Shown: piece by piece, positions 1-57,148 of the stretch
Layout: the number at the start of each line of letters is the position of its first letter
Position numbering within the stretch: position 1 is the stretch's first letter
Virus record (IMG/VR): IMGVR_UViG_3300045988_048750
Reading direction: 5' to 3' (one strand)
Length of the DNA stretch: 57,148 nucleotides
Source of the DNA: a virus
Notes under the pieces: generated by a model
What the model was told of the DNA's origin: nothing
Databases searched by the model: none
The model's input: the letters and a program-made list of their open reading frames with translations, nothing else
Program-made: the position numbers and the translations under genes

Positions 1-55
1 GACAAAGCGCAGCAACAGACAGCACAACCACAGTCCAGTACCAATAAGGAAATCA
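1..55. repeat. 55-bp terminal duplication, identical to 57094-57148; marks a circularly closed/permuted genome of unit length 57,093 bp
   Basis: the first 55 nt of the window match the last 55 nt exactly. Confidence 0.9.
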
Positions 56-191: not shown

Positions 192-3100
192 TTAATCTCC
201 AATCGCAGTAAATGCAGTAAAGTCTCCATATTCTTCAATGGAGTCGACAGCTTCATTAGCGAGTCTGTCGAAATATGAATAATCTATTGACGCCTGTTTT
301 GACGTCGCTTGCACCGTTTCCGCTTCGAGCCAACGATAGGGTACGCGTTGTGAAGCGACCATGCCGGGTTTAAGAGTTCCTCCAACGGAAAGATATCGAC
401 CATCCTTCTCACGGACGAGCACGCCTCCTCCATCTCCTTCCCGAATTGGGCAAAAGCTTCCGACGCGTCCAACAAAGCAGTAATTGTGCCCTTTCGCAAT
501 TCCTTCAACGATCTGGGCAGTGGACATGTCAGGGAATCGAAGTCGTTTTGGTTTACTGTCTCCATGTTTATCATTCCATTCTCTATTAGCAAGTTCCGTC
601 TCATATGCGGATACGTCAGGAAGATCCTCGTTCATATCCAAGTAAATAGAAGTTGTAACAGACTTGGTTACACAAAGATCCTTGAACTCAATATCCTCGT
701 GTGAGAATAGTTTCTTAAATACATAAGGAACTGCGAACTGAGCGCCAGTCACTGTCCAGCTAGGACCATGCTTCTGATTGTCACCGGGAATATGATCGAA
801 ACGCTTCTTGCACGTGATAGGATCATGGTAGTACGCGATGTAGTCAGCATCATTAATCTGACAGATACGATCGTAATATGCCTCGAAGTCAAACTTGTAA
901 CCATATTGCTTAGCATAATCAATGCAGAAATCAACAATGCTCTTGGTCGCGTTTGCAATCTTAATGGAATCCGTCTTAATTGCAACGATCTTGTAACCTC
1001 GTGCGAGAACCTCATCGTGAAGATTCTGCATGAACAACGCGCCACGGAGAGCCACAATATTGTTCTTGTTACGAGGATCACGCATCGGGTTGTCGAACGA
1101 AGCAGCAGTAAGACCATATACCGAGTTGATTGCGATCTTTAGAGCATAAGCCAACGAACTAGCCTGATCCGGATCATCCAAATATTTAGCAAGTCGACCG
1201 TCGAACAGATTCTTTGCTCGATCGTAATCGCCGTGCTTGATTGCCAAACGAGCATCAAGAATCGCTTTGAAGTTCTTGGTGTACTTACCGAAAATATTCA
1301 TCTCAATAGCCGAATGAGGGTGCAAGCTCTCAACATCGAGCAACGCTACATCATAATAAATTCCGGGATAAGACTTGATGTTTCCACCCTTGCCGACGTC
1401 TTCTCCTCGGTACATGTTGTGATACTTTTTGTCTTTGTCAGAATATACAAACTCGTATCCCTCGAATTTGTTCGAGTCTTTGTGAGTGCCATCAGTCGAA
1501 TCGCCTGTAGCCAGATCAGTGTATACCAAATCAGGATGACGCTCTTTACCAAAGATGATCTTGGTAGTTAGACTGTTAGTCGTATCATTAGTCGTACCAC
1601 CGGCAATCTCAGCCAGAATCTCTCGAGCCACAAAGTCGGACTTTCGAGCATTGAATACTGCCTCAGTAGCGAGAACATCGTCATCACAATACTCTGCGAC
1701 AGTGGTCCACATGTCTTCCGGAACCTCTTGATCCCAAGGCAATCCAATCTCGTGATGGTGAATACCAAGTTCGATCTCCCATTTCTTAAGACTTTGCTTC
1801 TTACTACAGAAGTCATAAACGTCTGTGTATGAGAGATTATAGGCTTCACCGAACATAGCGTCTCGGTTGCCGTTAATGATCTGTTGAGAACGGTGGAAGA
1901 TCTCAATATTGGACTCTCCGATAAGACGTGCATAAATAAGATGGTTGTCGTATCGGCGATTGTTGAATCCTACGAGCTTGTTCTGAACGAGATTCTCAAT
2001 ATCAGAAGGTGTCGGGTTGATCATTCGAACAACCTTTGAATCCTCACCCTCAAATTTCCAGTTAACAAGGAAGAGGTTGGGAAATACCTCGATATCGTAG
2101 AACACAAGCTTAGATCCGGTGTCTGCCAAAATCTCTCGAGTTTCCTCGGATTTGAATTTCATTTCGGCAATACGATCGAGACAATATGGAGCATGGTGAG
2201 TACTATTTGCACCAAAGCTCAGCACAGCATTTCGCATATCGCTAACATCATACTTTAGACCGGAATCGTATGCGTCATCCAAAATCTTTTTAATGAAATC
2301 GATACTAGGTTTTGTTCCAGGGTGGTACTCCTTATTCAGATTGCGCATTATAAGGGTTCGAATACCCTTTTCTGACTGCACTCCATCAAAGTCAATCACC
2401 TTCGTATCTCCTCTCAAGGGCAACCCAGATGAAATATGAGCTATCGGAACATTGTTGCATTTTGTAAGCTTACGTCGCAGAGAGCTTTTACCCGCGAACA
2501 CCTTGATTTCGATGTGATCATCATAGATTCGGCTAAGCTTAGAGGCATCCCCATCATAAATATAATGAAGGTGAATACCATTCCCGCTTTTACTGAACTC
2601 CGCATAAGTTTTAGGCCATTTGCTAGCCTCTTTGAGATTGAGTTCAGCATCCTTTTCGCCGTTCGATGAAATATCAAAATCGATTACGATGTGATTCTCA
2701 GGCACTCGTACATAATGAAGCTTCGTTGTATCGAGTTCACCAAGTTTTGTAGAGACTTTATCCCAAGCTTGCTTAGGTGTTCCGTTCTCTTTAGCATATT
2801 GAGCGATACAGTCCGAGTAATCCGTATCAAATATACTCTTGTCGGATGACAGATTCATCCACTGAGGCAAAGTCTCTTTCTCAACTTGCTTATCTAGTTT
2901 CTTAAGCTCTGGTACCTTGAACTTAGAATATAGAAAGCCTCGATACTGTCCCTCAACAATACGACCGTTTACTTCGCCAAGCTCTACAAAGTCAGAGAAG
3001 TAATTCTTAAGCTCCTCTTTGAATACTCGTCTGGAGAATGGATACTGAATCTTTGCATCGTCGCAAAAAGTCTTATACTTCTCCCAGGCGATGTTCAGAC

Positions 3101-4220
3101 TGACAGCATCCTCTCGTTTGAACTCTGTATAATTGGACACCATGAATGTGTAGAAATCATTCGTTGCACCAATCATGCTCATCGGAATGTAGTTGTCATA
3201 GTAATTCGGATCTTCCAAATATACGTCACGACAATGACACGCGATTGCTCCGAGTTCAAACTTTATTTGAGCAGTCAAAGTGCGATACTCACTTGGTTTG
3301 ATTTTCTCTCCGGTCGGTGATACATCAATAAGCCTTCGGATAATACCTGACTTAGCATCTGTGATCTTTACAGGCTTGTTAGTGCCCATAAATAAGAAGC
3401 TCTTGAAGTGATTGGCGTATGCTGTTTTGAACTTCTCATTCACCATCATTGTCTCGTGCGAAACAAGACTGTTAAGACGAGTATTGTCTTCGATTCGACT
3501 AAGATCGCCATCGTGCTGAATAGCGACAAGAGGATTAGACTTGAACGCCTCAAGGGCAAACGAGTTATTTGCAGACCCAAGAGCTCGAGCATCAAAGACA
3601 GAATAATATCCCTCAAATAATTGTTGAATGATATTAAGAACAGTCGACTTACCAGTACCAGCAGAACCATACAGTACTAGGAACTTTTGAATATGTTTCG
3701 AATCACCAGTTACGATTGATCCGATAGCCCATTCAATCTTATGTCGTTCCTCTGGAGAATATAGCGTAGACATGATCTTGTCATACGATGGGCACTCTCC
3801 TGGAGTCAGAGGGTATGGAAGCTTCTTACTTGCATAGTCTTCTTTCTTTGGATCATCATTGGCAAATATAAGCTTTTCATCCAAAGTTACATAGTTGTCC
3901 CTTAGCTGTCGTTGACAGTACTTATGCCATTTATCAATGAAGCCACTATCAGAATCCCAAATATAATTCGTACGTACAACTGCATTATATGACTCTTTAT
4001 GCTCGTTGTAATACGTACGAGTCATGTCATCAATTAAAGATATCGCACGTTGCTCGTCAGTTGACCAAAATCCAGTAGACTCATCATATATAGCATAGAA
4101 ATCACTACCACGAATCATAAGATCCGTACTCTTATTGATGAGAAACTTCGGAGATATCTCAACAGTATCTTTCTTGGGATTACGCTCGATAATTTTAACG
4201 AAATCCAACATTACATGCAA
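192..4220 (-). CDS. replicase fusion of an SF3-like P-loop ATPase/helicase, an archaeo-eukaryotic primase (prim-pol) domain and a proofreading family-B DNA polymerase
   Basis: Walker A GSAGTGKST and motif C-like FMGTN; AEP motifs IVIDFDI / KSGNGIHLHY / IYDDHIE; exonuclease motifs FYDIEVF, FNNRRYDNHLIY and YCDDDV; PolB motif A DVESLHPHS, motif B KIAINSVYGLTAASF, motif C-like IVAIKTDSI, and KKRF. Confidence 0.8.
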   Translation of the reverse strand: MHVMLDFVKIIERNPKKDTVEISPKFLINKSTDLMIRGSDFYAIYDESTGFWSTDEQRAISLIDDMTRTYYNEHKESYNAVVRTNYIWDSDSGFIDKWHKYCQRQLRDNYVTLDEKLIFANDDPKKEDYASKKLPYPLTPGECPSYDKIMSTLYSPEERHKIEWAIGSIVTGDSKHIQKFLVLYGSAGTGKSTVLNIIQQLFEGYYSVFDARALGSANNSFALEAFKSNPLVAIQHDGDLSRIEDNTRLNSLVSHETMMVNEKFKTAYANHFKSFLFMGTNKPVKITDAKSGIIRRLIDVSPTGEKIKPSEYRTLTAQIKFELGAIACHCRDVYLEDPNYYDNYIPMSMIGATNDFYTFMVSNYTEFKREDAVSLNIAWEKYKTFCDDAKIQYPFSRRVFKEELKNYFSDFVELGEVNGRIVEGQYRGFLYSKFKVPELKKLDKQVEKETLPQWMNLSSDKSIFDTDYSDCIAQYAKENGTPKQAWDKVSTKLGELDTTKLHYVRVPENHIVIDFDISSNGEKDAELNLKEASKWPKTYAEFSKSGNGIHLHYIYDGDASKLSRIYDDHIEIKVFAGKSSLRRKLTKCNNVPIAHISSGLPLRGDTKVIDFDGVQSEKGIRTLIMRNLNKEYHPGTKPSIDFIKKILDDAYDSGLKYDVSDMRNAVLSFGANSTHHAPYCLDRIAEMKFKSEETREILADTGSKLVFYDIEVFPNLFLVNWKFEGEDSKVVRMINPTPSDIENLVQNKLVGFNNRRYDNHLIYARLIGESNIEIFHRSQQIINGNRDAMFGEAYNLSYTDVYDFCSKKQSLKKWEIELGIHHHEIGLPWDQEVPEDMWTTVAEYCDDDVLATEAVFNARKSDFVAREILAEIAGGTTNDTTNSLTTKIIFGKERHPDLVYTDLATGDSTDGTHKDSNKFEGYEFVYSDKDKKYHNMYRGEDVGKGGNIKSYPGIYYDVALLDVESLHPHSAIEMNIFGKYTKNFKAILDARLAIKHGDYDRAKNLFDGRLAKYLDDPDQASSLAYALKIAINSVYGLTAASFDNPMRDPRNKNNIVALRGALFMQNLHDEVLARGYKIVAIKTDSIKIANATKSIVDFCIDYAKQYGYKFDFEAYYDRICQINDADYIAYYHDPITCKKRFDHIPGDNQKHGPSWTVTGAQFAVPYVFKKLFSHEDIEFKDLCVTKSVTTSIYLDMNEDLPDVSAYETELANREWNDKHGDSKPKRLRFPDMSTAQIVEGIAKGHNYCFVGRVGSFCPIREGDGGGVLVREKDGRYLSVGGTLKPGMVASQRVPYRWLEAETVQATSKQASIDYSYFDRLANEAVDSIEEYGDFTAFTAIGD

Positions 4221-27000: not shown

Positions 27001-28680
27001 GTCACGCAAAGTAGCCGCATCCTGCTTAACCGAGGTCATTTCTCTGTTGATGTCAGTAATCTGAGTCTTGACACTGCTGACATCCTTATTTGCCTGAGCA
27101 GCAGAGCTTAGAGCACTATCAGCAGTAGACTGAGCATTGCTAGCAGCTGTATTAGCGTTAGATGCAGCCTCATTAGCTTTCTCTGCTGAAGACTGAGCCG
27201 AATTGGCAGCAGTTGTCGCATCGTCAGCAGCCTTCTTAGCGGTGTCTGCCGCATTCTTAGCCTCAGTAGCCTTCTTTTCAACAAGGGTTACCTTAGCTTT
27301 AGTATCGTTTGAAGTAGACGAAGCATCTTCTGCTTTACTTACAGCTGAGTTAGCTATGTCTGTTACCTTGTCGGCTTTCTCAGCAGCGTCTGCAGCAGCA
27401 TCTGTCGCGGTATCCGCCTTATCTTTTGCTTCTTGAGCGAGCTTAGCTGAATTCTTAACATCAGTGCTTAGAGCATCGACTGTATCAAGACTTGTATTAA
27501 TTGAAGCATTAAGAGCTTTTAGATATGCACTCTGCTGGCCGGTAAGAGTATCATACGAAGCGCCTAAGTCAAAGGTAGTATTCTCAGGATTCATCAAATC
27601 GAGATCGATCGAATTGACCATGATGTACTCGTCTACCTTGCGGGGCTTAGAACGAACTCGTACCGCCTGACCGAGCTGAAGATGCTGGTACTTCTCGCCA
27701 AGAATAAGAGCAAGGTCTACGGCCCTGACTGAGATGGTGCGAGCAGGAGATAGCAGAGTATTAAGTGTCTTGCAGGCGTACTCAAGAAGACCGTCGTGAG
27801 TCTTGATATCGGTATTCGAGACATAGTACTCTCGATAACCGTAACGGGCGACAGCTTCTACATCATAAACCCTATCTCCCATTTTGACGATAGTCGAGGA
27901 GTATGGTGTGCCACCATCTGCGCAGCCTTCAAGAGTAATTGGCTTCATCTTAACATCAGTTTGACCCTCAGGAGGATCGGGCGTATACCCTGTTGCCACT
28001 ACTGCTGTATATTGAGTCTCCGCGGTAGTAGTCTTAGTAAAATCTAAAATATTGACACCGTAGTCAATAATCTGAGTATTGACATCATGGACGTCAGCGT
28101 AAAGATCAAGAATATTCAGATCATCCCGATAGCGTACGAACAGATAACCGCCAACAGAATTAAGAATCTTGTCCTCAATCTCTGAGGCAGTCGTTGGACG
28201 CTGTTCAGACGAACGATAGATATAATTGTTCTTATCAAGCATATTGCCCTGATTCACACCGACTGAGAAACGCTTGCGTGAGTCAAGACAATTAGAATTG
28301 TGCTGATTGATCAGCCATTGAAAATAACCATCAACTGTCGCCGGACAAGTTAGTGGTTGTTCTCCTTGCACAGTAGAGTACGGACGAACTCGAGTAGCAG
28401 TCAAGTAATCGAGAACGCCCGTACAAGAAACAGAGTAATTCCCCTCAAAGTCTTCATCTATTTTAGTAATCTCACCCTTGAATAGAATAAGATTGTTGAA
28501 ATAGATTCGAACTTCTCCTGCTCGCTCTTCAATTTTAGAATATAAAGAATGTGTAGAGGAGATAGTGAAATCGAAATATGAGGCGGCATTAAGCTTAGAA
28601 GAAAGCTTCGTATCGGTTATACGGTCATCCGTATAAGGATCGAAAAGAAGTTGATTATCATACAAAACCCTATAACCCAT
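24097..28680 (-). CDS. tail-associated lysin (Tal) / host-specificity fibre: an N-terminal prophage-tail-endopeptidase-like region, an Ala-rich coiled-coil repeat shaft, and a C-terminal binding region
   Basis: 1527 aa directly downstream of Dit; a long run of AKKAADDATTAANSAQSSAEKANEAASNAN-type repeats. Confidence 0.7.
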   Translation of the reverse strand: MGYRVLYDNQLLFDPYTDDRITDTKLSSKLNAASYFDFTISSTHSLYSKIEERAGEVRIYFNNLILFKGEITKIDEDFEGNYSVSCTGVLDYLTATRVRPYSTVQGEQPLTCPATVDGYFQWLINQHNSNCLDSRKRFSVGVNQGNMLDKNNYIYRSSEQRPTTASEIEDKILNSVGGYLFVRYRDDLNILDLYADVHDVNTQIIDYGVNILDFTKTTTAETQYTAVVATGYTPDPPEGQTDVKMKPITLEGCADGGTPYSSTIVKMGDRVYDVEAVARYGYREYYVSNTDIKTHDGLLEYACKTLNTLLSPARTISVRAVDLALILGEKYQHLQLGQAVRVRSKPRKVDEYIMVNSIDLDLMNPENTTFDLGASYDTLTGQQSAYLKALNASINTSLDTVDALSTDVKNSAKLAQEAKDKADTATDAAADAAEKADKVTDIANSAVSKAEDASSTSNDTKAKVTLVEKKATEAKNAADTAKKAADDATTAANSAQSSAEKANEAASNANTAASNAQSTADSALSSAAQANKDVSSVKTQITDINREMTSVKQDAATLRDDLTGQITTVKETMEADYTKKSELSATESNLKTEISKSAAGLRTEVSQTYSTKKELETTTKAAQTAQSTADAAKKAAESNASDLANAVSKFDGDISGLKDQIDGAIQTWFYDGIPNALTEPEVNWTTDKDRQTHLGDLYYDKHTGFCYRYMNQNGVYSWGRIQDTEVTKALADAANAQTTANAKKRIFVTTPKPPYDIGDLWVQGSNGDIMRCQTPKIASQTYAESDWVKASKYTDDTAVKNLSNTVERTYATKSTVNQLSDRIEQTVSSVEEVRTDASSAKTTADNAQKAANDAAAAANTAHETATAAQTAANEAQEHATSAATAASTAKANAAAAQAAANKANAALSDAQKNLEDLQNRADVTDEELTAAKNAVASAQTAADSANSAASKAKELANTAQSTANTAKQNAASAQSKANAAANAASAAQSTADTAKANAKKAQDAVDALKNRVTQAETKITQNSEAIALRATKTEVTSAINNVSIGGRNLLLNSNFLNGTSGWTTEENCKINAVPTDSLKEGNVYVLEIANTGRGRVCNNSRQEKYHLKNTQYSLQFKYKNEDSSPVTFYVGVEDNGLIIGNITAPADNTWRKFTATYTSPMTGSLTIRITSGTGRIFIGVPKLEYGNKVTDWSPAPEDYSTTTEMQSEIKQTADSITSAVSKTYQTKTDMQKYPTVNQTAVKYTFSGNQPDNSAKWIKLGTWTSSGDSQTCSIQVFTGNGYNGSANQNSDFSIFIKDGSQQTPSASVAFGVTVTLGLNCDNVKVQVRAKSSTVCDVWFYCPWYYGTGSYMVDRGSGKWEHSGLNQTAEPTDGTSQNIFMAGHLTSEETYSAINQRADQISSTVAATYINNETLSSYATKSQLEQTSTSLTSRIQTTEKTVSGMSTTVKNVDDYMTFARENNQPTLTIGSSSSSFRTKLTNTSEKFMQGNQTIMELDGVTSTVKASRVQMGHYQWRDTGTSMQLVYIA

Positions 28681-46390: not shown

Positions 46391-46704
46391 ACTGTTCCGC
46401 CATAAGATTTCATAGCTTCGACAGCTTCCTTCATGAGTTGCTCGACATGAGTCGCCGATTCCAGAGACTGTGTCTTTGCCTTGAGTAGTTCATTCTCGTG
46501 AACCAACTTTTCTCGCTCAAGTTCCGCTCGTTCAGTACCAAGTTTCAAAAAATGAACGATAACAGCCGAAGATGCAGTGCCATCACGCAACTGTGATTCA
46601 GCACAGTCCATAGCAAGAGATATCATTTGATTCTCTTTACCTTCTGGAGTAAGAGGTGGCATACTTCTTATAGACTTGTCGTCAGTCTTATTACGTTTAC
46701 CCAT
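46387..46704 (-). CDS. hypothetical protein (possible terminase small subunit or late regulator)
   Basis: AAAGGAGGAG RBS; 105 aa, helical. Confidence 0.4.
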   Translation of the reverse strand: MGKRNKTDDKSIRSMPPLTPEGKENQMISLAMDCAESQLRDGTASSAVIVHFLKLGTERAELEREKLVHENELLKAKTQSLESATHVEQLMKEAVEAMKSYGGTV

Positions 46705-46844
46705 AAATATCTCCTCCTTTACCCGACTTCATCTTCATTTTGAATTAGTTTATGTAGTGTTTTTAGGACCTATCCTGACTTGGTACCCTGCGTGAAAGGA
46801 GAAAAAAGCGCAATCGCAAAGATAGGTCCGAAGAACACTGCATA

Positions 46845-46880
46845 AAAATTAAGGATAGAGGGGGCTTGAGCGACCCCTCC
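46845..46880 (-). terminator. rho-independent terminator after the dCTP deaminase gene
   Basis: GAGGGG-N10-CCCCTC stem, followed on the minus strand by TATCCTTAATTTTTATG. Confidence 0.6.
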
Positions 46881-46886
46881 GAAACA

Positions 46887-47459
46887 TTAACCACGAGCAG
46901 TGGTCGGTCCTTTTTGGCCCTGATAATGAGAATTGAGAGACGGATCTCCATAAGGATGAGCACAATAAGAATCAAGTCCGAAGAAACAGATCTGCCCGAT
47001 TCGCATACCATACTTGATGTCAATCGGATAACGATTCTCGTTCTTCATCTCAAGAGTAATCTGACCCTCGAATCCTGCATCAATAAATCCAGCAGTAACA
47101 TGAGTAGTCAGACCGATTCGACCAAGAGAAGACTTGCCTTCAAATCGTCCAGCAATATCATTCGGAAGCTTTACCGTTTCCTTGGTAGAAGCAATAATGA
47201 AATCACCAGGGCACATACGATAGCAGTTGTCCCGATCTTCCGTAAGATCAATCTCGACATACTCTAGTCCATGAAGTTTCTTATCATAAGCTGTAATATG
47301 ACTCTCAACAGGGTATTCGTCAATGTTGCTAACTACCATCTTCTTAATAATCTTATCAAGAGTTAGATCGTAGCTACACGGTTGCTGTTGCTCAGAGTGA
47401 TACGGAGTAATAAGATCGGCCCTAGCGGACCTTACAGCAATAGTAACGTCAGAAAGCAA
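46887..47459 (-). CDS. dcd: dCTP deaminase (dUTPase superfamily)
   Basis: KSSLGRIGLTTHVTAGFIDAGFEGQITLEMKN. Confidence 0.75.
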   Translation of the reverse strand: MLSDVTIAVRSARADLITPYHSEQQQPCSYDLTLDKIIKKMVVSNIDEYPVESHITAYDKKLHGLEYVEIDLTEDRDNCYRMCPGDFIIASTKETVKLPNDIAGRFEGKSSLGRIGLTTHVTAGFIDAGFEGQITLEMKNENRYPIDIKYGMRIGQICFFGLDSYCAHPYGDPSLNSHYQGQKGPTTARG

Positions 47460-47845: not shown

Positions 47846-50656
47846 TTAGTTACTTCCTTTCTTTCCATTTAAGTATTGATAGACAGTTGAAGGTGAGCAG
47901 CCTAAAGCATTGGCTATCTCTTGGTTAGTGTACATACCAGATGCAGCCATAGACTTAAGCTTTGTGATCTTAGCCTGTGTCAATGTAACTGTAGACTTAG
48001 GCATAGCCTTAGCTCTAATAGAATCAGGATCAGAGTAACGCAATACTTTCTGCAACTGAGTACTTGAAATAGCACCAGCCTGGATGGCTTCCCATTCCCT
48101 ATCAGTAAGCTTGATACGTACCTTCTTACCAGAGGCGCCTACTTGTGCACGAGCGGCCTCTATAGCAAGCTGCTTTGTCTTCTTGTACAGCTTCTTATCT
48201 TCAATTAGGGCCGGGTTATCGGCTACTTTAGCCTTAACTACGGAGTTAGCCAGGGCCATAGCCCTACGCTCCTTAGGGGCGTTCATATCGGCAGCCTTAA
48301 TCTTTTCATTTAGGGCTGTTACTTCTGCAGCATAGGTAGACTGGGCCTGCTTGTTTAGCTTTGAATTGTCAGTAGCCAAGTATTCTTTTCGAGCTTCGTT
48401 AGCAAGGGCCTTCATTTTGTTACCATAGGAGGCATAAGCTTCCTCTTGTGGGGTACCGGATGAAAGTGTATGAAGATCTTTAGTCGCAAGCAATAGCTTC
48501 TGCTCTTGAGTAGCGAGAACTGTTTTGCCAGTCTTCTTATCTACATAGGTACGCCCCGACAGTTTGTACTCTACCTCTCCGGTATCGGGGTTAATCTTAC
48601 CGGATCCACGGGTCTCTGGAACACGAATGGTCTGGTTACGCCTAGACAATAGGGTGGATGCACCAGTACTTTCATTACCATTCTCATTAGTATGGAGCTG
48701 ATACTTCTTCTTAAGCTCAGCAATACCATTATCTTTCTCAGACTGCTTGTAGTCTAGCTTGTGCTTCTCTGCATCAATGACTACCATGGAGTGTCGAACA
48801 GCACGTTCAAGTTCTTCTGGCTTTGCTCCGGCTAGGGTCATGTCAGTAATAAGATTCGAAACAATACCCATTTGCTTCTGCTTATACTCTTTTGACATGA
48901 TCTTAACAGGAACACCAGCAGAATTAACCCTAACAGTCTTACCATTAACTACTTTCTCATCAGTAGAATAGGCAGTCTTAGGATCAAAGCCAACAAGTCC
49001 CTTCAAAGGCTTCTGATTTTTGATCTTAACACGACTGTTAGTAGGAATAACTACAACCTGATCACCATCAAAGTCAGCACCAGACAGCTGTTCTGCGACT
49101 TTAGGGTTAATACCAATAGCATCTACAGCATTAGGGTCAAGAATAGCTCGACATTTACGACTACGGTTGTTAACAGTTAGGATTGGGATCTCAAATGTGC
49201 CACCATGAGGATAGCGAACTAGTGCTACCTGCTCTCCATCCTTATAGGTAGGAGCATACACTTCAGTATCCTTGAGATGAGTCATAGGAAGAATAACTTT
49301 GGTGCTCTCACGAGGCAATGCAGCAGCCTTAAGATGTGTTGCAGCAGAATCACATTCATTAGCAAAGTCCATAAGAAACTTTTTCTTGACTGTATCATTA
49401 GTCAAGCTCTTAATCTCTTGGTATTCTGAAAGAGAACTATCATAGCTGAGGTTCAACTGTTTCTTAATCAGAGACATAGGCTGCTTAGACAAGAACTGTG
49501 AAGACAGATTCTTGCTCATATCATCCCAATCGCCCTCTTCTTTAAGCTTGTTGATTGCGCTAAGCTTAGACTTACCAGATTTATCAGTGTAATATGACTG
49601 ACCATCAGCCTTGATGGCTGCACCAAAAGGATTATCCGGGTCTTCGGTATGAATAGGTTTCAATACCTTGTTCTTAGGAACATCATGAGTCTTGTTAGTG
49701 TTAAACACAATGTCATAGCCATCCGGAATATCATCCGAATACATTGCCATACCCTTAAGATAATGAGTTCCATCAACAAGAATACGAACCTGTGCATAGT
49801 GAGAGTTACCAAGACTCAGATCATCTACGCCACGACGAATCTCAATGACGCCATCTTTTTCAACGCCTTTGGATCCAAAAAGATCTTCATCACCATAATG
49901 AATCTTAACACGAGAGCTATCAATAGATGAAGGATACTGAGTCTTGTTAAAGGTTAAGCCACCATCAGTAGAATGGTAATTTCCTACTGAATCGATATCG
50001 CCCATGTTTTGATAGGCATCCTTGTATTCGACGTCCTTATTAGCAAGAACTGATACAATAGTTTGCTTGCCAGGATTAGTGACATTAGGAACACCAACAC
50101 CATAAACATTGTAGCCACGAGTACGAAGAATAAACAAAGCTTCTTTAAGAGTGCCCTGAGACACTCCCAACTCGTGTTCAACGCCAGCGCCGACATCAAG
50201 CATAGAATGCGATTTAAGGGCCTCTTCTAGCTTGTCAGCAGTGACACTAGCCCTATTCTTATTCGTGGCCGTATTCTCGTTTAGAAGGGCTCTAACGGAC
50301 GAATCATTGGCATATCCCATGATACTTGCGATCTCATCAAGGGTTTTACCCTGATGTCGAAGAGATTTCGCTCGTTCAGCATCCATCTGACGACGTTCAT
50401 GAACAGCAACACGCTTCTGCAAACGAAGATCAGTGGTTGTCATACCAAGAGCTTCAGCAATCTCTTTCTCAGTGCCATACTTCTTAGAAAGTTCGTCTAC
50501 ACGAGAAAGGAAGTCGCCGCCACTTTGAAAAGGATTCTCTCCAGAACCCCAAGGATATCGACCAGAATGTCGCTTAGTTCCATAATGAGTAAGCTCTTCT
50601 TCAATTTCATCAATCTCATCGATAACCATAAATTCAGTGTAGTCCTCAAGTTCCAT
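47846..50656 (-). CDS. putative single-subunit, YonO-like 'two-barrel' RNA polymerase: beta-like and beta-prime-like double-psi beta-barrel motifs, plus N- and C-terminal HTH domains
   Basis: beta-prime-like: VALVRYPHGGTFEIPILTVNNRSRKCRAI...SGADFDGDQVVVIP (cf. NRQPSLH...NADFDGDQMAVH). beta-like: GSKGVEKDGVIEI...DDIPDGYDIVFNTNKTHDVPKNK (cf. RHGNKGV...DMPF.DG.P.DI.LNP..PSR). HTHs: TEKEIAEALGMTTTDL, KTLDEIASIMGYANDSSVRALL, NQEIANALGCSPSTVYQYL. Confidence 0.6.
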   Translation of the reverse strand: MELEDYTEFMVIDEIDEIEEELTHYGTKRHSGRYPWGSGENPFQSGGDFLSRVDELSKKYGTEKEIAEALGMTTTDLRLQKRVAVHERRQMDAERAKSLRHQGKTLDEIASIMGYANDSSVRALLNENTATNKNRASVTADKLEEALKSHSMLDVGAGVEHELGVSQGTLKEALFILRTRGYNVYGVGVPNVTNPGKQTIVSVLANKDVEYKDAYQNMGDIDSVGNYHSTDGGLTFNKTQYPSSIDSSRVKIHYGDEDLFGSKGVEKDGVIEIRRGVDDLSLGNSHYAQVRILVDGTHYLKGMAMYSDDIPDGYDIVFNTNKTHDVPKNKVLKPIHTEDPDNPFGAAIKADGQSYYTDKSGKSKLSAINKLKEEGDWDDMSKNLSSQFLSKQPMSLIKKQLNLSYDSSLSEYQEIKSLTNDTVKKKFLMDFANECDSAATHLKAAALPRESTKVILPMTHLKDTEVYAPTYKDGEQVALVRYPHGGTFEIPILTVNNRSRKCRAILDPNAVDAIGINPKVAEQLSGADFDGDQVVVIPTNSRVKIKNQKPLKGLVGFDPKTAYSTDEKVVNGKTVRVNSAGVPVKIMSKEYKQKQMGIVSNLITDMTLAGAKPEELERAVRHSMVVIDAEKHKLDYKQSEKDNGIAELKKKYQLHTNENGNESTGASTLLSRRNQTIRVPETRGSGKINPDTGEVEYKLSGRTYVDKKTGKTVLATQEQKLLLATKDLHTLSSGTPQEEAYASYGNKMKALANEARKEYLATDNSKLNKQAQSTYAAEVTALNEKIKAADMNAPKERRAMALANSVVKAKVADNPALIEDKKLYKKTKQLAIEAARAQVGASGKKVRIKLTDREWEAIQAGAISSTQLQKVLRYSDPDSIRAKAMPKSTVTLTQAKITKLKSMAASGMYTNQEIANALGCSPSTVYQYLNGKKGSN

Positions 50657-50657
50657 T

Positions 50658-51221
50658 CTAGTCCTCCTCTCTTATTCCAGAAAGAATCTTATCAAATTTG
50701 ACAATTTTGTCGCAAATATCCCTAATCTCAGCAGGATCGGGTTCATACTCAAAGATCTCATCATTCTGATAAATCCTCAAAATAATAGTGATCTCCGATG
50801 GCTTACGACGATACTCCAAACAATATAAAGCAGCATAAATCTCTAGCTGCTCCATATGTGCTGGAATCTTGCCAGTCTTCAAATCATGAATACGAAGAGT
50901 CTTGGTTTTCTCGTCAAAACGAATAGCATCAGCAGTTCCAAAAAAGTTTGAAGAGTAATATAGAATTACTTCAGGATCAAGCCGATAATTAATAGCATCG
51001 TTGACGTAAGTATTCAGAGTCTTCTTAGAACGAGGAAGCTTTTGTCCAAGCGCGATAGCTTCAGCCGCAAACTCATGAAGTCTTGTTCCATACTCCTTGG
51101 CTTGCATACTCTCATAGATCTGAAGAAGCTTATCCTTGTCGTAGTTAATCCAGTGCCATTTGCTAGCTCCGAATGTAGCGTGCTTACCTTTTAGTTCGTA
51201 ATGATTGTTGAAGCGCATCAA
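50658..51221 (-). CDS. PD-(D/E)XK family nuclease
   Basis: GTADAIRFDE...LRIHDLKTGK...QLEIYAALY. Confidence 0.6.
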   Translation of the reverse strand: MMRFNNHYELKGKHATFGASKWHWINYDKDKLLQIYESMQAKEYGTRLHEFAAEAIALGQKLPRSKKTLNTYVNDAINYRLDPEVILYYSSNFFGTADAIRFDEKTKTLRIHDLKTGKIPAHMEQLEIYAALYCLEYRRKPSEITIILRIYQNDEIFEYEPDPAEIRDICDKIVKFDKILSGIREED

Positions 51222-51513
51222 GCACCTCTTCCTTGTTCTCAGGATATATAAAACTACTGAAAGACATATGATTCATCTTATCAACATAATAATCTTGATT
51301 AGGTCGATGCTTAGCCTTGGCGCTACGCTTGCATTCCAATGTTGCCCACCTTTGTCCATAAAGAACAATCAAATCAGGAATACCCTGAATTTGAGTAGGA
51401 TCGGTCTTCATCACAATGCAACCCGGAAGACGTTTCTTCAAGTCTTTCTTGAGTTCTGCCTGAAACTTACTTTCCAGCTTGGTTGAGTTACTTGTCATGG
51501 ATTCTCCTTTCAC
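51184..51513 (-). CDS. VRR-NUC domain nuclease
   Basis: GIPDLIVLYGQRWATLECKRS...NQDYY. Confidence 0.65.
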   Translation of the reverse strand: MKGESMTSNSTKLESKFQAELKKDLKKRLPGCIVMKTDPTQIQGIPDLIVLYGQRWATLECKRSAKAKHRPNQDYYVDKMNHMSFSSFIYPENKEEVLDALQQSLRTKR

Positions 51514-51669
51514 ATGAAAAATACCTCAAAAGGAACATAGAAAGTATCCTAAATCGGGACACATTCTATCTCTCTCCATAAAAGAGTCTGTTTTTTTCGC
51601 GGAAGAATTACTAACACCCTGTAACTCTTAAACTACTCAAAACAGACTCTTCATTAACCAAGCGCTAGT

Positions 51670-52110
51670 CTACAACAACTTCCACTGATCTTGATGAATG
51701 CCTTCAAGATACCAAGAAAGAATGTAATGACTATAGGCAGTAGGCTTTCGTTGAAAATTCAAATATCGATAAATAGAATTCTCAGACAGACCAGTTCGCT
51801 CGGCAAGCTTCCTTCGAGAGATCTGACGGGCAAGCATACGACCACCAAGCAACTCTGAAAAATTGCGAAGATATGTTTGCTCACTCATCGGAAACAAAGT
51901 AGACTCATACTGATCCATGAAATATGAATCGCTCTCAATCCACAGACAAGTATGGTCATTGTAAGACCATCGATAGCAATCATCTGTATCAGTCCAAAGA
52001 TCCATACACTGATCGCCGACATACCTACAAAAGACGGCGCTGTCTTTCAAATCGGGAAGACGATCAAAAATATCCTTTACAATACCTGTCATAGTAATGC
52101 TGCTCTGCAT
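51670..52110 (-). CDS. XRE-family HTH transcriptional regulator
   Basis: LARQISRRKLAERTGLSENSIYRYLNFQRKPT. Confidence 0.6.
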   Translation of the reverse strand: MQSSITMTGIVKDIFDRLPDLKDSAVFCRYVGDQCMDLWTDTDDCYRWSYNDHTCLWIESDSYFMDQYESTLFPMSEQTYLRNFSELLGGRMLARQISRRKLAERTGLSENSIYRYLNFQRKPTAYSHYILSWYLEGIHQDQWKLL

Positions 52111-52167
52111 TTTGCTAAAATCCTTTCAAAATTGCGAAAATTACATAAAAATTACCAAAATATCCAA

Positions 52168-52443
52168 AACGTTGACACCTGGTCCTTTTTACGTAATTGG
52201 GGGTATATATTACCTTATATATTATATTTTTTTTATCGTATTAGTATACATCAATTTACGTAAAAAGGACCAGGAGTCAACGTTTTTTTCACCCAAAAAA
52301 GGGCCAAAAAGGACCAATTGGTCCTTTTTCACCAAATTTTGCCAAAAATCAGCAATTTTTCATAGGTTGACAGTTGGTCCTTTTTCACTTTTTGGCCTCT
52401 CCAACTCAAAAATCAAAAGTTGCCAATTGGTCCTACTTTTTGC
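52168..52443. other. putative origin of replication / operator cluster: a 29-bp imperfect inverted repeat around an AT-rich spacer, then at least 3 TTGGTCCTTTTTCAC iterons and a GGACCAATTGGTCC palindrome
   Basis: aacgttgacacctggtcctttttacgtaa (52168-52196) vs ttacgtaaaaaggaccaggagtcaacgtt (52256-52284); iterons at about 52318, 52374 and 52426. Confidence 0.5.
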
Positions 52444-53697
52444 CTAAAATTGACCAACAAAGTTGCCCTCAGTGAAGTTTTTCTTCTGCTTCAATGCCTT
52501 CGCAATAGCCAGATCGATAGGTGCAGAACTCCTCAAATGATAGCAATATAGGTCCACAAACGGAGTATTCAAGCGATTGATACGTCCCGAAGCTTGCTGC
52601 ATCACCTTATATGAATAGTTCTGAGAGAAGAAAATAATGGTGTCCGTAGTGATACAATTCCAGCCTTCACATCCAGCAGTGTACTGAACGAGATACACCC
52701 AATCGTCTCCAGTCGGAATAGGCTGATGCAAATGACCGTTCCACTGAGCTACCTCCAACCCTTTGATCCCACCAAACGCTTCAAGCAATGCATCAAGTTC
52801 ATAGTCGAAGTTGTAGAATATGATGGACTTCCTTCTCTTCAAAGCAATATTCACACATTTCTTGATCCTGTCTTCAGAACTGTTAACCAACTTCCTCCAA
52901 GTATAGCACAACTCCGAAGCATTAACTATTGGCTCATCTGTGTATGGATTGATCCTGGTTTTACCCACAAGTTTGTATTCCTCTTTTGGCCATGTTACGT
53001 CAATAAGTTCGTCATGCATGACAGTAGCTCTTTGCATTGGCATATCGACAAGTATCTTTCTTCGTAGTCGGATAAGGCGTCCTGTATTGATGTACCTGTC
53101 GATCTTGGGGTAAGTAGTGAACCGACTATAGATGACATGCGCCTGAATGAACTCGGTTTTGTTCCTGTAAAATCCGTTAGCCAAGAATACTGGGATGTAG
53201 TCAGACCAAGTATCTCCTGGGGTAGCGGAAAGAAGGATCCATCGATTGTGTTTCGCAATCCTAAGGAAAGCCTTAACCCATGCACCACTACCGACAACTC
53301 TTTGCTCGTCAAATATGAAGAACGCATTTTGGATGTCTTTGTACTTAGCGATATTGTTCCAGGAATCGATGACGACCTCTCGGAATATCTTAGATTCGAC
53401 CTCACTTCCGACAAGCAAGTCTTTCCCCACATGATCTGTGAAGATATAGAACGGGATGAGCTCTTGGTCCCATTCATAGGTATCTCGTTTTCTTGCAGTT
53501 GTGATGATATACAACGGTATAGGGTGTTCCATTTCTTGAAACCCCTCGGAATCAGTAGCGTCAAGATTACCACCCATTTCTTTGTAATAATATGCTAAGG
53601 ATGTACGACTCTTTCCAGTTCCTACACCTCCACACAATATGTTACCGTCTCGCAACTCATCGACTGCTTTTCTTTGCCATGGGTATAGTTCGATCAT
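52444..53697 (-). CDS. SF2 (DEAD/SNF2-like) DNA helicase
   Basis: Walker A GGVGTGKS, FIFDEQ motif II, RWILLSATPG motif III. Confidence 0.7.
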   Translation of the reverse strand: MIELYPWQRKAVDELRDGNILCGGVGTGKSRTSLAYYYKEMGGNLDATDSEGFQEMEHPIPLYIITTARKRDTYEWDQELIPFYIFTDHVGKDLLVGSEVESKIFREVVIDSWNNIAKYKDIQNAFFIFDEQRVVGSGAWVKAFLRIAKHNRWILLSATPGDTWSDYIPVFLANGFYRNKTEFIQAHVIYSRFTTYPKIDRYINTGRLIRLRRKILVDMPMQRATVMHDELIDVTWPKEEYKLVGKTRINPYTDEPIVNASELCYTWRKLVNSSEDRIKKCVNIALKRRKSIIFYNFDYELDALLEAFGGIKGLEVAQWNGHLHQPIPTGDDWVYLVQYTAGCEGWNCITTDTIIFFSQNYSYKVMQQASGRINRLNTPFVDLYCYHLRSSAPIDLAIAKALKQKKNFTEGNFVGQF

Positions 53698-56082: not shown

Positions 56083-56247
56083 TATTCTGTAATATTTCTG
56101 ATTTACGCCAACTTAAGCTTCCCACAGCAGATACCTTAGATTGTTTACTTCACGGACGGAAAGAGTAGTTATCATGATTATCTCTTTTTTTTTTTTTTTT
56201 TGTTGAAAAGAAAGAATCCATGCAATAAGCACAGACCCTTTCTTCAG

Positions 56248-57093: not shown

Positions 57094-57148
57094 GACAAAG
57101 CGCAGCAACAGACAGCACAACCACAGTCCAGTACCAATAAGGAAATCA
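57094..57148. repeat. second copy of the 55-bp terminal duplication
   Basis: identical to positions 1-55. Confidence 0.9.

Follow-up and report, generated by a model that had tools for sequence, protein, structure and literature searches.

In a complete siphovirus genome of ~57.1 kb, the non-coding gap that is both the longest and the richest in A+T (positions 52111-52443) harbors the genome's sole non-coding iteron-like array, and this element is, judged by sequence comparison, conserved with lineage-specific repeats in a large phage group of gut Firmicutes and soil Actinobacteria. We consider it roughly an even proposition (a probability of about 0.5) that the gap is an origin of replication, of the iteron plus unwinding-element type used by self-loading SF3 helicase initiators. 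Following comparative analysis, an origin appears to be the best-supported explanation, which partly bears out the first-pass annotation of this DNA, where the region had been proposed as a candidate origin or operator array; the main rival is a platform for transcription control. The window, meaning the whole stretch of DNA analyzed (57,148 nucleotides), has a circular map on which all genes are co-directional on the minus strand, with no divergent lysogeny-type module.

Organization of the repeat array

The features discussed below are as follows.

192-4220, minus strand: SF3 helicase-AEP primase-DNA polymerase fusion of 1342 aa (DUF5906), candidate initiator
47846-50656, minus strand: YonO/RdRP-like RNA polymerase homolog of 936 aa with N- and C-terminal HTH, alternative candidate binder
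51670-52110, minus strand: 146-aa protein with a C-terminal HTH, in a variable slot downstream of the element and probably not its binder
52111-52443, no strand assigned: non-coding element, from the SF2 helicase stop codon to the HTH gene start codon; 333 bp, GC 0.32
52166-52207, no strand assigned: inverted-repeat arm on the HTH-gene side, with GTTGACA (52171-52177) and TGGTCCTTTTT (52180-52190) on the plus strand and a T-tract running into the spacer
52208-52244, no strand assigned: AT-rich spacer between the inverted-repeat arms, candidate DNA-unwinding element
52245-52286, no strand assigned: inverted-repeat arm on the helicase side, with GTTGACT (52281 to 52275) and TGGTCCTTTTT (52272 to 52262) on the minus strand and a T-tract running into the spacer
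52253-52280, minus strand: candidate promoter of sigma-A-like type directed at the HTH gene (TTGACT-16 nt-TAAATT), with an iteron in its spacer; 9/12 matches
52296-52316, minus strand: tandem motif pair, TGGTCCTTTTT (52316 to 52306) and TGGCCCTTTTT (52306 to 52296), both facing the spacer
52306-52329, minus strand: perfect 24-bp palindrome AAAAAGGACCAATTGGTCCTTTTT, a back-to-back motif pair
52366-52388, plus strand: composite repeat unit GTTGACAGTTGGTCCTTTTTCAC
52419-52441, plus strand: degenerate composite unit GTTGCCAATTGGTCCTACTTTTT
52444-53697, minus strand: SF2 (DEAD/SNF2-like) helicase, with the element directly after the gene
52446-52456, minus strand: TGGTCAATTTT, a weak outlying copy of the motif within the final codons of the helicase coding sequence

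The gap contains eight copies of a short, GC-rich TGGYCM core with a T-tract, distributed over both strands, together with four GTTGMCW half-sites, the 24-bp palindrome and an inverted repeat of 29-42 bp. The 29-bp inverted repeat with one mismatch and the 59-bp AT-rich spacer described at first pass were both recovered: the arms lie at 52168-52196 and 52256-52284 (AACGTTGACaCCTGGTCCTTTTTACGTAA vs AACGTTGACtCC...), and the 59 nt separating them are 80% A+T. With the repeat tool the arms extend to 42 nt at 88% complementarity (52166-52207 / 52245-52286). Each arm holds one motif copy, the helicase-side arm (52245-52286) is invariant among 95%-identical relatives, and as single-stranded DNA the inverted repeat folds at -34.1 kcal/mol (z = -11). 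This repeat also accounts for the only Rfam matches to the element, which were sub-threshold, generic long-hairpin (miRNA-precursor) models; a tRNA scan found none.

Other details of the earlier description required revision. At least three direct repeats of TTGGTCCTTTTTCAC had been listed, two of which are exact (52318-52332 and 52374-52388); the third (52427-52441) is degenerate (TTGGTCCTACTTTTT). Further copies, which bring the total to eight, had been missed: those in the inverted-repeat arms, reverse-strand copies at 52262-52272, 52296-52306 (TGGCCC) and 52306-52316, and the weak one at 52446-52456. The palindrome GGACCAATTGGTCC exists at 52311-52324, two bases from its reported position, as the core of the longer palindrome at 52306-52329. 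Likewise, both TTGACA hexamers are present (52172-52177 and 52367-52372), but as parts of a four-copy unit, GTTGMCW-N1-YTGGTCC, rather than as independent -35 boxes, and on the plus strand they point antisense to all genes. Read on the gene-sense strand, the 24-bp palindrome is a terminator-like, A/U-rich hairpin (RNA fold -23.4 kcal/mol, z -3.8) followed by GGCCCTTTTTT; its left arm is degraded in close relatives.

The repeat array exceeds chance. Allowing at most one mismatch, TTGGTCCTTTTT occurs seven times in the gap versus once in the other 56.8 kb, a total count matched by none of 100 shuffles; GTTGACANNTGGTCC yields six matches versus 0.81 expected; and six of the 37 genomic GGWCC sites fall within the gap, a 26-fold enrichment.

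The array is arranged around an exceptionally unstable center. Positions 52191-52261 are 80-90% A+T with iterons on both sides, and no 40-mer of the genome is less stable than 52204-52243 (-36.2 kcal/mol vs a mean of -51.4, sd 3.5). Motif copies beside the center point inward from both sides to a 37-71-bp segment of lowest stability. The helicase side carries more copies, including the back-to-back pair, and three of them point inward (52316-52306, 52306-52296 and 52272-52262). The HTH side has one strong inward copy (52180-52190) and otherwise only the GTTGACA half-site, which counts against an origin; the relatives L188, L126, Circum and Caterpillar have at least two inward copies per side. 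Cumulative GC skew, suggested at first pass as a check on origin function, could be computed, but it is monotonic without inflection and uninformative here, because every gene lies on the minus strand.

Conservation across phage lineages

Loci from gut viruses were collected by anchoring on the exonuclease gene, and the same modular architecture was found in 61 of 63 related gut viral contigs as well as in all 14 named or isolated relatives examined. Among the carriers are FP_oengus, Arthrobacter phage Circum, Gordonia phage Gravy, Streptomyces phage Soshi, Rhodococcus phage ReqiPepy6 and Lactococcus phage P092, and eight further lineages include Microbacterium and Curtobacterium phages, an oral siphovirus and the 114-kb phage Qui; hosts thus comprise Faecalibacterium, Lactococcus, Arthrobacter, Gordonia, Rhodococcus, Streptomyces, Microbacterium and Curtobacterium. 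When gut relatives were instead anchored on the helicase, downstream gene content was variable and simple k-mer counts found no arrays. The papers examined, which dealt with FP_oengus, the supergroup of Actinobacteria/Firmicutes phages, clusters AU, EL and CC, and 1706-like phages, yielded no earlier description of the element.

The modules follow a constant order, which 16 diverse elements also show when aligned: first a motif cluster, next a hairpin, then pairs of inward-pointing motifs, an AT-rich spacer of 45-95 bp and, last, opposed motifs. Each element in the relatives has 4-17 iterons, and the 5-7-nt core changes by lineage (GCCCAC, TGGCCA, TGGTCA, TGCCAC, CTGCCAA, CCCGGA, GGGAC, ATTTCGC or CTGGCAA). 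An architecture that is conserved across phyla while its cores change implies selection for protein binding. No 50-mer of the locus was less stable than the spacer in 11 of 15 lineages and then in 8 of 8 more (19/23 in total), with a stability z of ~3.5-5.2 even in actinophage loci of 50-58% GC. Among 95%-identical relatives, the inverted repeat and spacer, with 2/121 variable sites, are under more constraint than the remaining gap, with 14/212 (p = 0.06), a point in favor of an origin.

The genomic position of the element is also constrained. Both in the window and in actinophage relatives it directly follows the SF2 helicase gene, and it always lies upstream of the genes for nuclease and RNA polymerase, with which it shares its orientation. 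Lactococcus phage P092 is no exception: the element is placed differently there with respect to the exonuclease but is still upstream of the RNA-polymerase-like gene. Furthermore, the spacer sequence is conserved directionally among relatives (wTGyGA ... TATAwA). This directional conservation and the fixed orientation count against an origin and fit a transcriptional role.

Candidate initiator and the origin reading

Three observations carry the origin reading: opposed iteron arrays are conserved around a conserved, low-stability, AT-rich center, the element occurs in a single copy per genome, and a cognate class of self-loading SF3 helicase-primase is encoded by every carrier. Each element-carrying phage encodes an SF3 helicase-primase of the D5/NrS-1/SaPI-Rep class fused to a polymerase, and this fusion is among the core genes of the group's ~250 phage genomes. 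The primase-polymerase invoked in the first-pass annotation is not the large neighbor at 47846-50656, which is the YonO/RdRP-like RNA polymerase homolog; the helicase-primase-polymerase is the 1342-aa protein at 192-4220.

Fold searches with this protein matched poxvirus D5/E5, the NrS-1 helicase region (CTR), ASFV PrimPol, SaPI5 PriRep5 and SaPI1 PriRep1, at E-values of ~1e-6 to 1e-5 from an underlying model of moderate confidence, and on this model the fold class appears clear. Its DNA-binding domain received no confident assignment from the predicted structure of the N-terminal 700 residues, a model with a mean pLDDT of 62 and low quality in its ATPase and winged-helix-like regions. Next to the ATPase domain, on its C-terminal side, a winged-helix-like helix varies among phages and follows phylogeny, the window's version (PFSRRVFKEELKNY) resembling that of GCCCAC-type gut relatives; no candidate DNA-binding segment co-varied cleanly with the iteron core. 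The moderate structural model and the lack of clean co-variation both count against an origin.

Under the origin reading, a conserved phage protein would bind the cores on both sides of the AT-rich center and melt it. The favored binder is the 192-4220 fusion, which may act through a DNA-binding module beside its ATPase domain and, once bound, would load as two opposed helicase rings. The inward T-tracts might then serve as AEP primase start points for two diverging leading strands, and, given the end-of-operon hairpin and the promoter-like site in the gap, transcription may traverse or activate the origin.

The closest known parallel is found in the SaPI origins, which contain 6-12 penta- or hexanucleotide iterons with an AT-rich center and at least two opposed iterons on each side, and which are bound and melted by SF3/SF6 Rep helicases via a winged-helix domain (PMC9371898). 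The closest structural relative of the SaPI Rep helicase is the NrS-1 helicase domain, and a primase fusion occurs in SaPI5 (PMC9371898). The present element resembles these origins in its eight TGGYCM cores with T-tracts, a number within the SaPI range, in iterons on both sides of an AT-rich center with opposed flanking copies, in the variation of iteron sequence among related elements, and in the presence of an encoded SF3 initiator helicase, for which the NrS-1 helicase domain is likewise a top fold match. It differs in that its iterons carry T-tracts, several core types can coexist in one array, and the phage helicase is fused to a DNA polymerase; its binding and melting are putative. Moreover, SaPI origins lie immediately downstream of rep, whereas the element sits beside the SF2 helicase gene: the SF3 gene lies 4.8 kb upstream of it on the circular map, and 10-13 kb separate the two in Oengus and Circum. 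This separation of 4.8-13 kb counts against an origin. So does the outcome of a plasmid search for the module as a natural minimal replicon, which gave zero matches.

Satellite phage P4 encodes the alpha primase-SF3 helicase, whose origin-binding domain recognizes octamer iterons in direct and inverted orientation; its two cis regions (ori and crr) are separated, and no extreme AT-rich center is known between opposed iterons. The multifunctional primase-SF3 helicase is the shared feature, and remote 'P4 family primase' matches to the 1342-aa protein were obtained, although the domain order is primase-helicase in P4 and helicase-primase-polymerase here. Among lactococcal and streptococcal phages, non-coding origins ('Per' elements and the Sfi21-type ori of S. 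thermophilus) have been shown functionally by plasmid replication or interference. They have no known sequence similarity to the element, a putative origin, and belong to other initiator families.

Alternative readings and implications

The main rival holds that a conserved phage protein on the motif array switches, insulates or activates the promoter of the nuclease-RNA-polymerase operon, possibly a late operon, with the AT-rich center as promoter or bendable hinge and the HTH-flanked YonO-like RNA polymerase or a small protein as binder. We regard this as tentative and somewhat unlikely. The constant placement upstream of the RNA-polymerase-like gene, P092 included, is what it would predict, as is the directional conservation of the spacer; a terminator-like hairpin stands just upstream of the inward-pointing arms, and some gut lineages have their next ORF ~40 nt past the right arm, too close for another promoter to fit between the two. 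By contrast, 8-17 sites over 250-400 bp far exceed usual operator sets. The actinophages bear on both sides of the question: they have a separate conserved promoter directly after the right arm, whose upstream part overlaps a GCCCAC copy, as transcription control might require, but whose separateness means that the AT-rich center is not needed as operon promoter. A lysogeny switch in particular is unlikely, since the element is kept in strictly lytic phages (PMC4110766).

Promoter signals elsewhere in the genome also weigh against this rival. The iteron motif occurs in this gap only and does not recur as a promoter of the phage-encoded RNA polymerase might; all other promoter regions lack it. 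A different motif, TTCCGC-N15-TTTAATGAAG, has eight copies on the gene-sense strand and marks the other intergenic promoters. The spacer was considered as an instance of TTCCGC-N15-TTTAATGAAG and rejected, being a poor one that shares only a CGCGAwAAAAA-like part.

The closest analogy for transcription control is offered by the p4 sites at the A2c/A2b/A3 promoters of phi29, where inverted repeats with T/A-tracts (bent DNA) flank the promoters and set the early-to-late switch. That system has only four p4 sites and a dedicated small protein, and is not known to have a long AT-rich center or to be conserved across phyla; the present analysis identified no protein resembling p4.

As binder, the RNA polymerase homolog at 47846-50656 is attractive for its three HTH motifs, but its C-terminal HTH does not track the iteron: GCCCAC lineages have NNSL, HDAL, SDAL, SAAL or SKYL helices. 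An initial hint of co-variation from Oengus and Circum (TGGCCA/CCCAC with a 'DAL' helix ending) was lost when more lineages were added. The homolog in phage 1706 is a virion protein according to the GenBank annotation of a relative, and the YonO/RdRP-like enzyme is the signature gene of the phage supergroup.

A more specific and doubtful proposal makes the element the DNA platform of this two-barrel polymerase, which would dock on the array, open the AT-rich center and either prime the leading strand or fire a unique master promoter. The primary origin of T7 comprises phage-RNA-polymerase promoters followed by an AT-rich region, served by the phage's own single-subunit RNA polymerase and without a known iteron array. 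Its AT-rich segment and promoter elements are reminiscent of the present element, for which transcription-activated or -primed initiation beside a conserved promoter would fit; however, the T7 enzyme is unrelated to the YonO/RdRP-like one, and the element's motif is not at other promoters. If true, the proposal would provide the first cis-element defined for this RNA polymerase class, the promoter being explicitly unknown even for YonO (PMC5467207).

A reading of the gap as ordinary intergenic DNA is improbable; it would combine a terminator ending the helicase operon with a host promoter for the next operon, and the repeats would be incidental or represent recombination 'boundary' sequences. 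Terminator-like and promoter-like sites do lie in the gap, hairpins accompany promoter-like motifs in other gaps of the genome too, and cluster AU phages have been suggested to carry intergenic 'boundary' repeats (bioRxiv 10.1101/2020.01.10.891226). The density and symmetry of the motifs and the extreme AT-rich center are nevertheless unique in the genome, these features persist across phyla while cores change, and the AU 'boundary' repeat is located elsewhere in AU genomes, at 28.5-30 kb.

The first-pass alternative, in which the repeats are operators through which the adjacent 146-aa HTH ('XRE') protein regulates its own promoter, is very improbable and, on the comparative data, appears largely refuted. 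The gene starts 56 nt downstream of the array, and one motif copy lies in the spacer of the sole sigma-A-like promoter facing it (52253-52280), a weak candidate whose 9/12 matches are within chance expectation for the region. The protein matches Cro/C1-type HTH domains, all below Pfam cut-offs. It is a near-orphan, with only two homolog clusters among 5.8 billion proteins; at helicase-anchored loci it occurs only in a 98-99%-identical relative, and it is absent from every more distant element-bearing relative (>60 loci, 14 named/isolated phages). A homolog on contig L113 is 76% identical, and that contig ends 81 nt upstream of the gene, before any array. Dozens of lineages without the protein carry the homologous element with the same motif vocabulary, and unrelated ORFs (a Zn-ribbon protein, membrane peptides, HNH) occupy the downstream slot in relatives; the HTH gene is, by this comparison, a lineage-specific insertion. 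Co-directional genes, the missing divergent or switch-type promoter arrangement and retention of the element in lytic phages further oppose an operator.

Packaging (cos/pac), attP or partition-centromere sites can also be short protein-binding repeat arrays with bent or AT-rich DNA, but such a role is the least probable of all: cos, pac and attP were rejected on position, as in 1706-group relatives the record termini are defined cohesive ends and the element is internal (PMC4110766), the terminase genes lie 4-6 kb away with the nuclease and RNA-polymerase genes between, and FP_oengus, recovered as a prophage (PMC5883640), has the element at 26.9 kb of a 58.4-kb record rather than at its ends, while no partition genes were found among the ORFs tested.

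If the element is an origin, it would supply the replication start site, and a pointer to the initiator, for a phage group that is large and of ecological importance. This group includes ~250 sequenced isolates (infecting Arthrobacter, Gordonia, Streptomyces, Rhodococcus, Microbacterium, Curtobacterium and Lactococcus) together with hundreds of human-gut viral contigs, and one member, Faecalibacterium phage Oengus, has been reported from as many as 40% of human virome samples (PMC5883640). A pattern of opposed iterons flanking a locus's least stable 50-mer would be a compact, readily recognized non-coding marker of the group. The element would also explain a previously unannotated gap, and small ORFs called across it in actinophage records (Circum gp95, Gravy gp87/88) may be spurious. 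The iteron variants form a natural series in which the evolution of initiator specificity could be followed across two bacterial phyla, and possible uses include interference ('Per'-type) phage resistance in dairy lactococci and a replicon part for gut Firmicutes. Should transcription control prove to be its role, the element would still be the main conserved regulatory DNA of the group.

Setting and anatomy of the element

An exact 55-bp direct repeat occupies both ends of the window (1-55 and 57094-57148) and is read as a circular-assembly overlap; the genome is therefore complete, at about 57,093 bp. All of its genes lie on the minus strand, and its GC skew is negative throughout. The element is a 333-bp gap with a GC content of 0.32, the largest and lowest-GC gap in the genome. 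In gene-sense order, its surroundings are as follows:

52444-53697, minus strand: SF2 helicase, directly upstream of the element
52111-52443: the element, between the SF2 helicase stop codon and the start codon of the 146-aa protein
51670-52110, minus strand: 146-aa protein with a C-terminal HTH, first gene after the element
51184-51513, minus strand: VRR-Nuc-like endonuclease
50658-51221, minus strand: Cas4/RecB-like exonuclease
47846-50656, minus strand: 936-aa YonO/RdRP-like protein

The 29-bp inverted repeat with one mismatch reported in the first-pass annotation is present, and its arms extend to 42 nt with 88% complementarity around a 59-nt spacer of 80% A+T. At least three direct repeats of TTGGTCCTTTTTCAC had been described, of which two are exact and the third is degenerate; the GGACCAATTGGTCC palindrome lies at 52311-52324, not 52309-52322, within a perfect 24-bp palindrome (52306-52329). 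Both noted TTGACA hexamers exist on the plus strand. They are not antisense promoters; they form half-sites within the repeat unit and can be compared with the TGACCA/TGGTCA motifs of relatives. In total, the element contains eight TGGYCM copies with a T-tract and four GTTGMCW half-sites, including reverse-strand copies absent from the earlier list. Repeat enrichment is far above chance: of eight matches to TTGGTCCTTTTT in the genome, allowing up to one mismatch, seven fall within the gap; GTTGACANNTGGTCC has 6 matches vs 0.8 expected; and the element holds 6 of the genome's 37 GGWCC sites. It is the genome's sole non-coding iteron-like array, and no other 40-mer in the genome is as unstable as 52204-52243, which deviates from the mean by more than 4 sd.

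GGWCC cores cluster second most densely at 46700-46915 (46766, 46825 and 46906), in the gap that separates the dCTP deaminase gene from the HNH-terminase genes. This cluster holds an inverted repeat, CGGACCTATC...GATAGGTCC, plus one AAAAAGGACCGA copy; it could be a minor site for the element's candidate binding protein or a mere RNA hairpin. Separately, near the start of the early region, the gap at 56083-56247 contains a run of 17 A on the gene-sense strand (56185-56201), which could be a slippage-prone or bent-DNA tract.

Conservation across phage lineages

Close relatives, 95-99% identical to the window, carry the same element, with the inverted repeat and spacer nearly invariant (2 of 121 sites variable vs 14 of 212 in the remaining gap, p = 0.06). 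In Faecalibacterium phage Oengus (FP_oengus), the nearest named relative, an analogous block of TGGCCAAAAA/CCCACTT repeats and a 94% A+T segment lies upstream of the endonuclease-exonuclease-RNA-polymerase genes. Comparison of relatives anchored on the helicase revealed variable downstream gene content and no arrays. With the exonuclease as anchor, followed by an array detector scan, arrays were found in 61 of the 63 loci with enough upstream sequence to be counted. Reading and alignment of these arrays identified one homologous modular architecture, into whose frame the window's element fits:

Module 1: upstream cluster of motif copies, including a head-to-head pair
Module 2: small hairpin segment
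Module 3: one or two motif copies, T-tract pointing into the spacer
Module 4: AT-rich spacer, 45-95 bp
Module 5: opposed motif copies across the spacer

The element also occurs in Arthrobacter phage Circum, Gordonia Gravy, Streptomyces Soshi, Rhodococcus ReqiPepy6, Lactococcus P092 and eight further lineages, including Microbacterium, Curtobacterium, an oral siphovirus and the 114-kb phage Qui. Its motif core varies:

GCCCAC and TGGCCA: widespread
TGCCAC: Soshi
CTGCCAA: Gravy, ReqiPepy6
CCCGGA: P092
GGGAC: L122, a relative's locus
ATTTCGC: Bilo
CTGGCAA: oral contig89
TGGTCC: the window

Among the 50-mers of each fetched locus, the spacer ranks as least stable in 19 of 23 lineages, and all the actinophages tested (48-58% GC) are among these 19.

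Relative L077 (5200-5730; gene order helicase, gap, endonuclease, without an HTH gene) shares this layout; its iterons (AAAACATAAAAA / TTTTTGTG) are strongly AT-biased, the most divergent class among the elements compared, and surround a centre of 92% A+T. Small hypothetical ORFs annotated within the element, namely Circum gp95 (L195 10179-10316) and Gravy gp87 and gp88 (L196 1721-1907), are probably not genes.

The ORF directly downstream of the element varies by lineage, being the HTH protein in the window, an unannotated Zn-ribbon protein in Oengus, membrane peptides in the L120 and L127 loci, and HNH in several actinophages. A search of 5.8 billion proteins gave two clusters for the 146-aa HTH protein, a near-orphan that all more distant relatives lack. 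The Oengus ORF (L114 7218-7593; FP_oengus record 27217-27592) encodes 124 aa with two CxxC pairs, has a good RBS and a preceding TTTAATGAAG-type motif, and fills the variable position that the HTH gene takes in the window, within an 871-bp 'gap' between gp52 and the endonuclease. In the window, the 156-bp gap from the HTH gene to the endonuclease (51514-51669) contains a hairpin, AAGAGTCTG...CAGACTCTT, that overlaps a conserved promoter-like site, CGCGAAAAAAACAGACTCTTTTATGGAGAGAGATAGAATG; most relatives' gap directly upstream of the endonuclease corresponds to this gap, not to the iteron region.

Replication enzymes and the origin reading

A 1342-aa protein (192-4220, minus strand), which combines a DUF5906 P-loop domain, AEP-primase motifs and a polymerase domain, is the actual replication enzyme. 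Modelled with moderate confidence (pLDDT 62), its residues 1-700 match poxvirus D5/E5, the NrS-1 helicase region, ASFV PrimPol, SaPI5 PriRep5 and SaPI1 PriRep1; on these model matches, the phage's polymerase is fused to an SF3 primase-helicase that belongs to the self-loading initiator class. This SF3 helicase-primase-polymerase is present in all element-carrying phages. A single ORF of 1279-1344 aa encodes it in the window, Oengus, Circum, Soshi and P092. Gut homologues with 63-67% identity (P0003-P0122) are mostly called at 872-910 aa and end within the polymerase part; in those lineages the gene may be split, may carry an insertion (intron, intein or HNH) or may be broken up by gene calling.

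The gene at 47846-50656, earlier taken for a primase-polymerase, belongs to phrog_4291, an 'RNA-dependent RNA polymerase' family; its product is a YonO/RdRP-like, two-barrel RNA polymerase homologue with a DFDGD motif and three HTH motifs, two of them N-terminal and one C-terminal. The second of the N-terminal pair (DSSVRALLN) hardly changes across phyla, and the C-terminal HTH is variable. The ReqiPepy6 GenBank annotation describes the phage 1706 homologue (gp75) as a structural protein, which hints that the polymerase homologue is virion-carried.

SaPI-type origins, from Staphylococcus aureus pathogenicity islands, comprise 6-12 penta- or hexanucleotide iterons and an AT-rich centre, with oppositely oriented flanking iterons (PMC9371898). 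The element's layout matches this arrangement, and together with the SF3 enzyme in all carriers and the sole iteron array it leads us to read the element as a candidate replication origin, at a probability of about 0.5. A conserved phage protein would bind the iteron cores and the AT-rich centre would melt; two helicase rings would load and then move apart, and the AEP primase could start two leading strands at the inward-pointing T-tracts. The anatomy, its conservation, the conserved low stability of the spacer and the class of helicase encoded rest on direct observation; the binding partner, the melting and the priming are inferred. Our confidence is held at this level because the SF3 helicase gene does not adjoin the element but lies 4.8-13 kb away, clean co-variation with the iteron core was seen for neither candidate reader domain in the lineages compared, spacer sequence is conserved directionally, and the RNA-polymerase-like gene is invariably downstream of the element and in the same orientation, with a conserved promoter, TTGCCCACGCA-N15/16-TATAATGATAGGAATAGAAT, directly after the element in actinophages.

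Possible transcription control and excluded readings

These same observations leave room for a transcription-control site, which we consider possible but less likely than an origin. Against it, the iteron motif is found nowhere else in the genome, and a different motif, TTCCGC-N15-TTTAATGAAG(G), marks the other intergenic promoters (9 matches vs 1.6 expected, 8 on the gene-sense strand):

5' ends, minus strand: 7380, 17595, 18059, 51583, 54122, 54438, 55743; 11570 doubtful

Moreover, the actinophage operon promoter is separate from the AT-rich centre, whose conserved instability therefore needs another explanation. Transcription activates many phage origins, so origin and transcription control could coexist.

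The TTCCGC motif is bipartite, with sigma-like -35 / 17 bp / -10 geometry and hexamers that are not sigma-A-like. It usually lies just 3' of a terminator-like hairpin. Gut relatives and Oengus retain it ahead of the endonuclease gene, and the actinophage TATAATGATAGGAATAGAAT shows a recognisable relationship to it. It may represent the class of promoters that the phage's YonO-like RNA polymerase uses; for YonO itself, PMC5467207 describes the promoter as unknown.

The proposal that the repeats are operators of the adjacent HTH protein is excluded, the element being older than and independent of the HTH gene. Also excluded are a lysogeny switch (lytic phages retain the element; PMC4110766), cos (1706-group cohesive ends lie at the record termini; PMC4110766), attP (Oengus is a prophage, PMC5883640, and the element is mid-record) and, by Rfam search of the element, a known RNA family.

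No description of the element was found in the literature searched, a set outside which the original phage 1706 paper falls; the preprint defining the Actinobacteria/Firmicutes supergroup covers the HTH-flanked RNA-polymerase homologue and mentions no origin, promoter or repeats. The interest of the element lies in its conservation across two phyla, in the natural series of iteron variants that it offers, and in which core protein reads the iterons.
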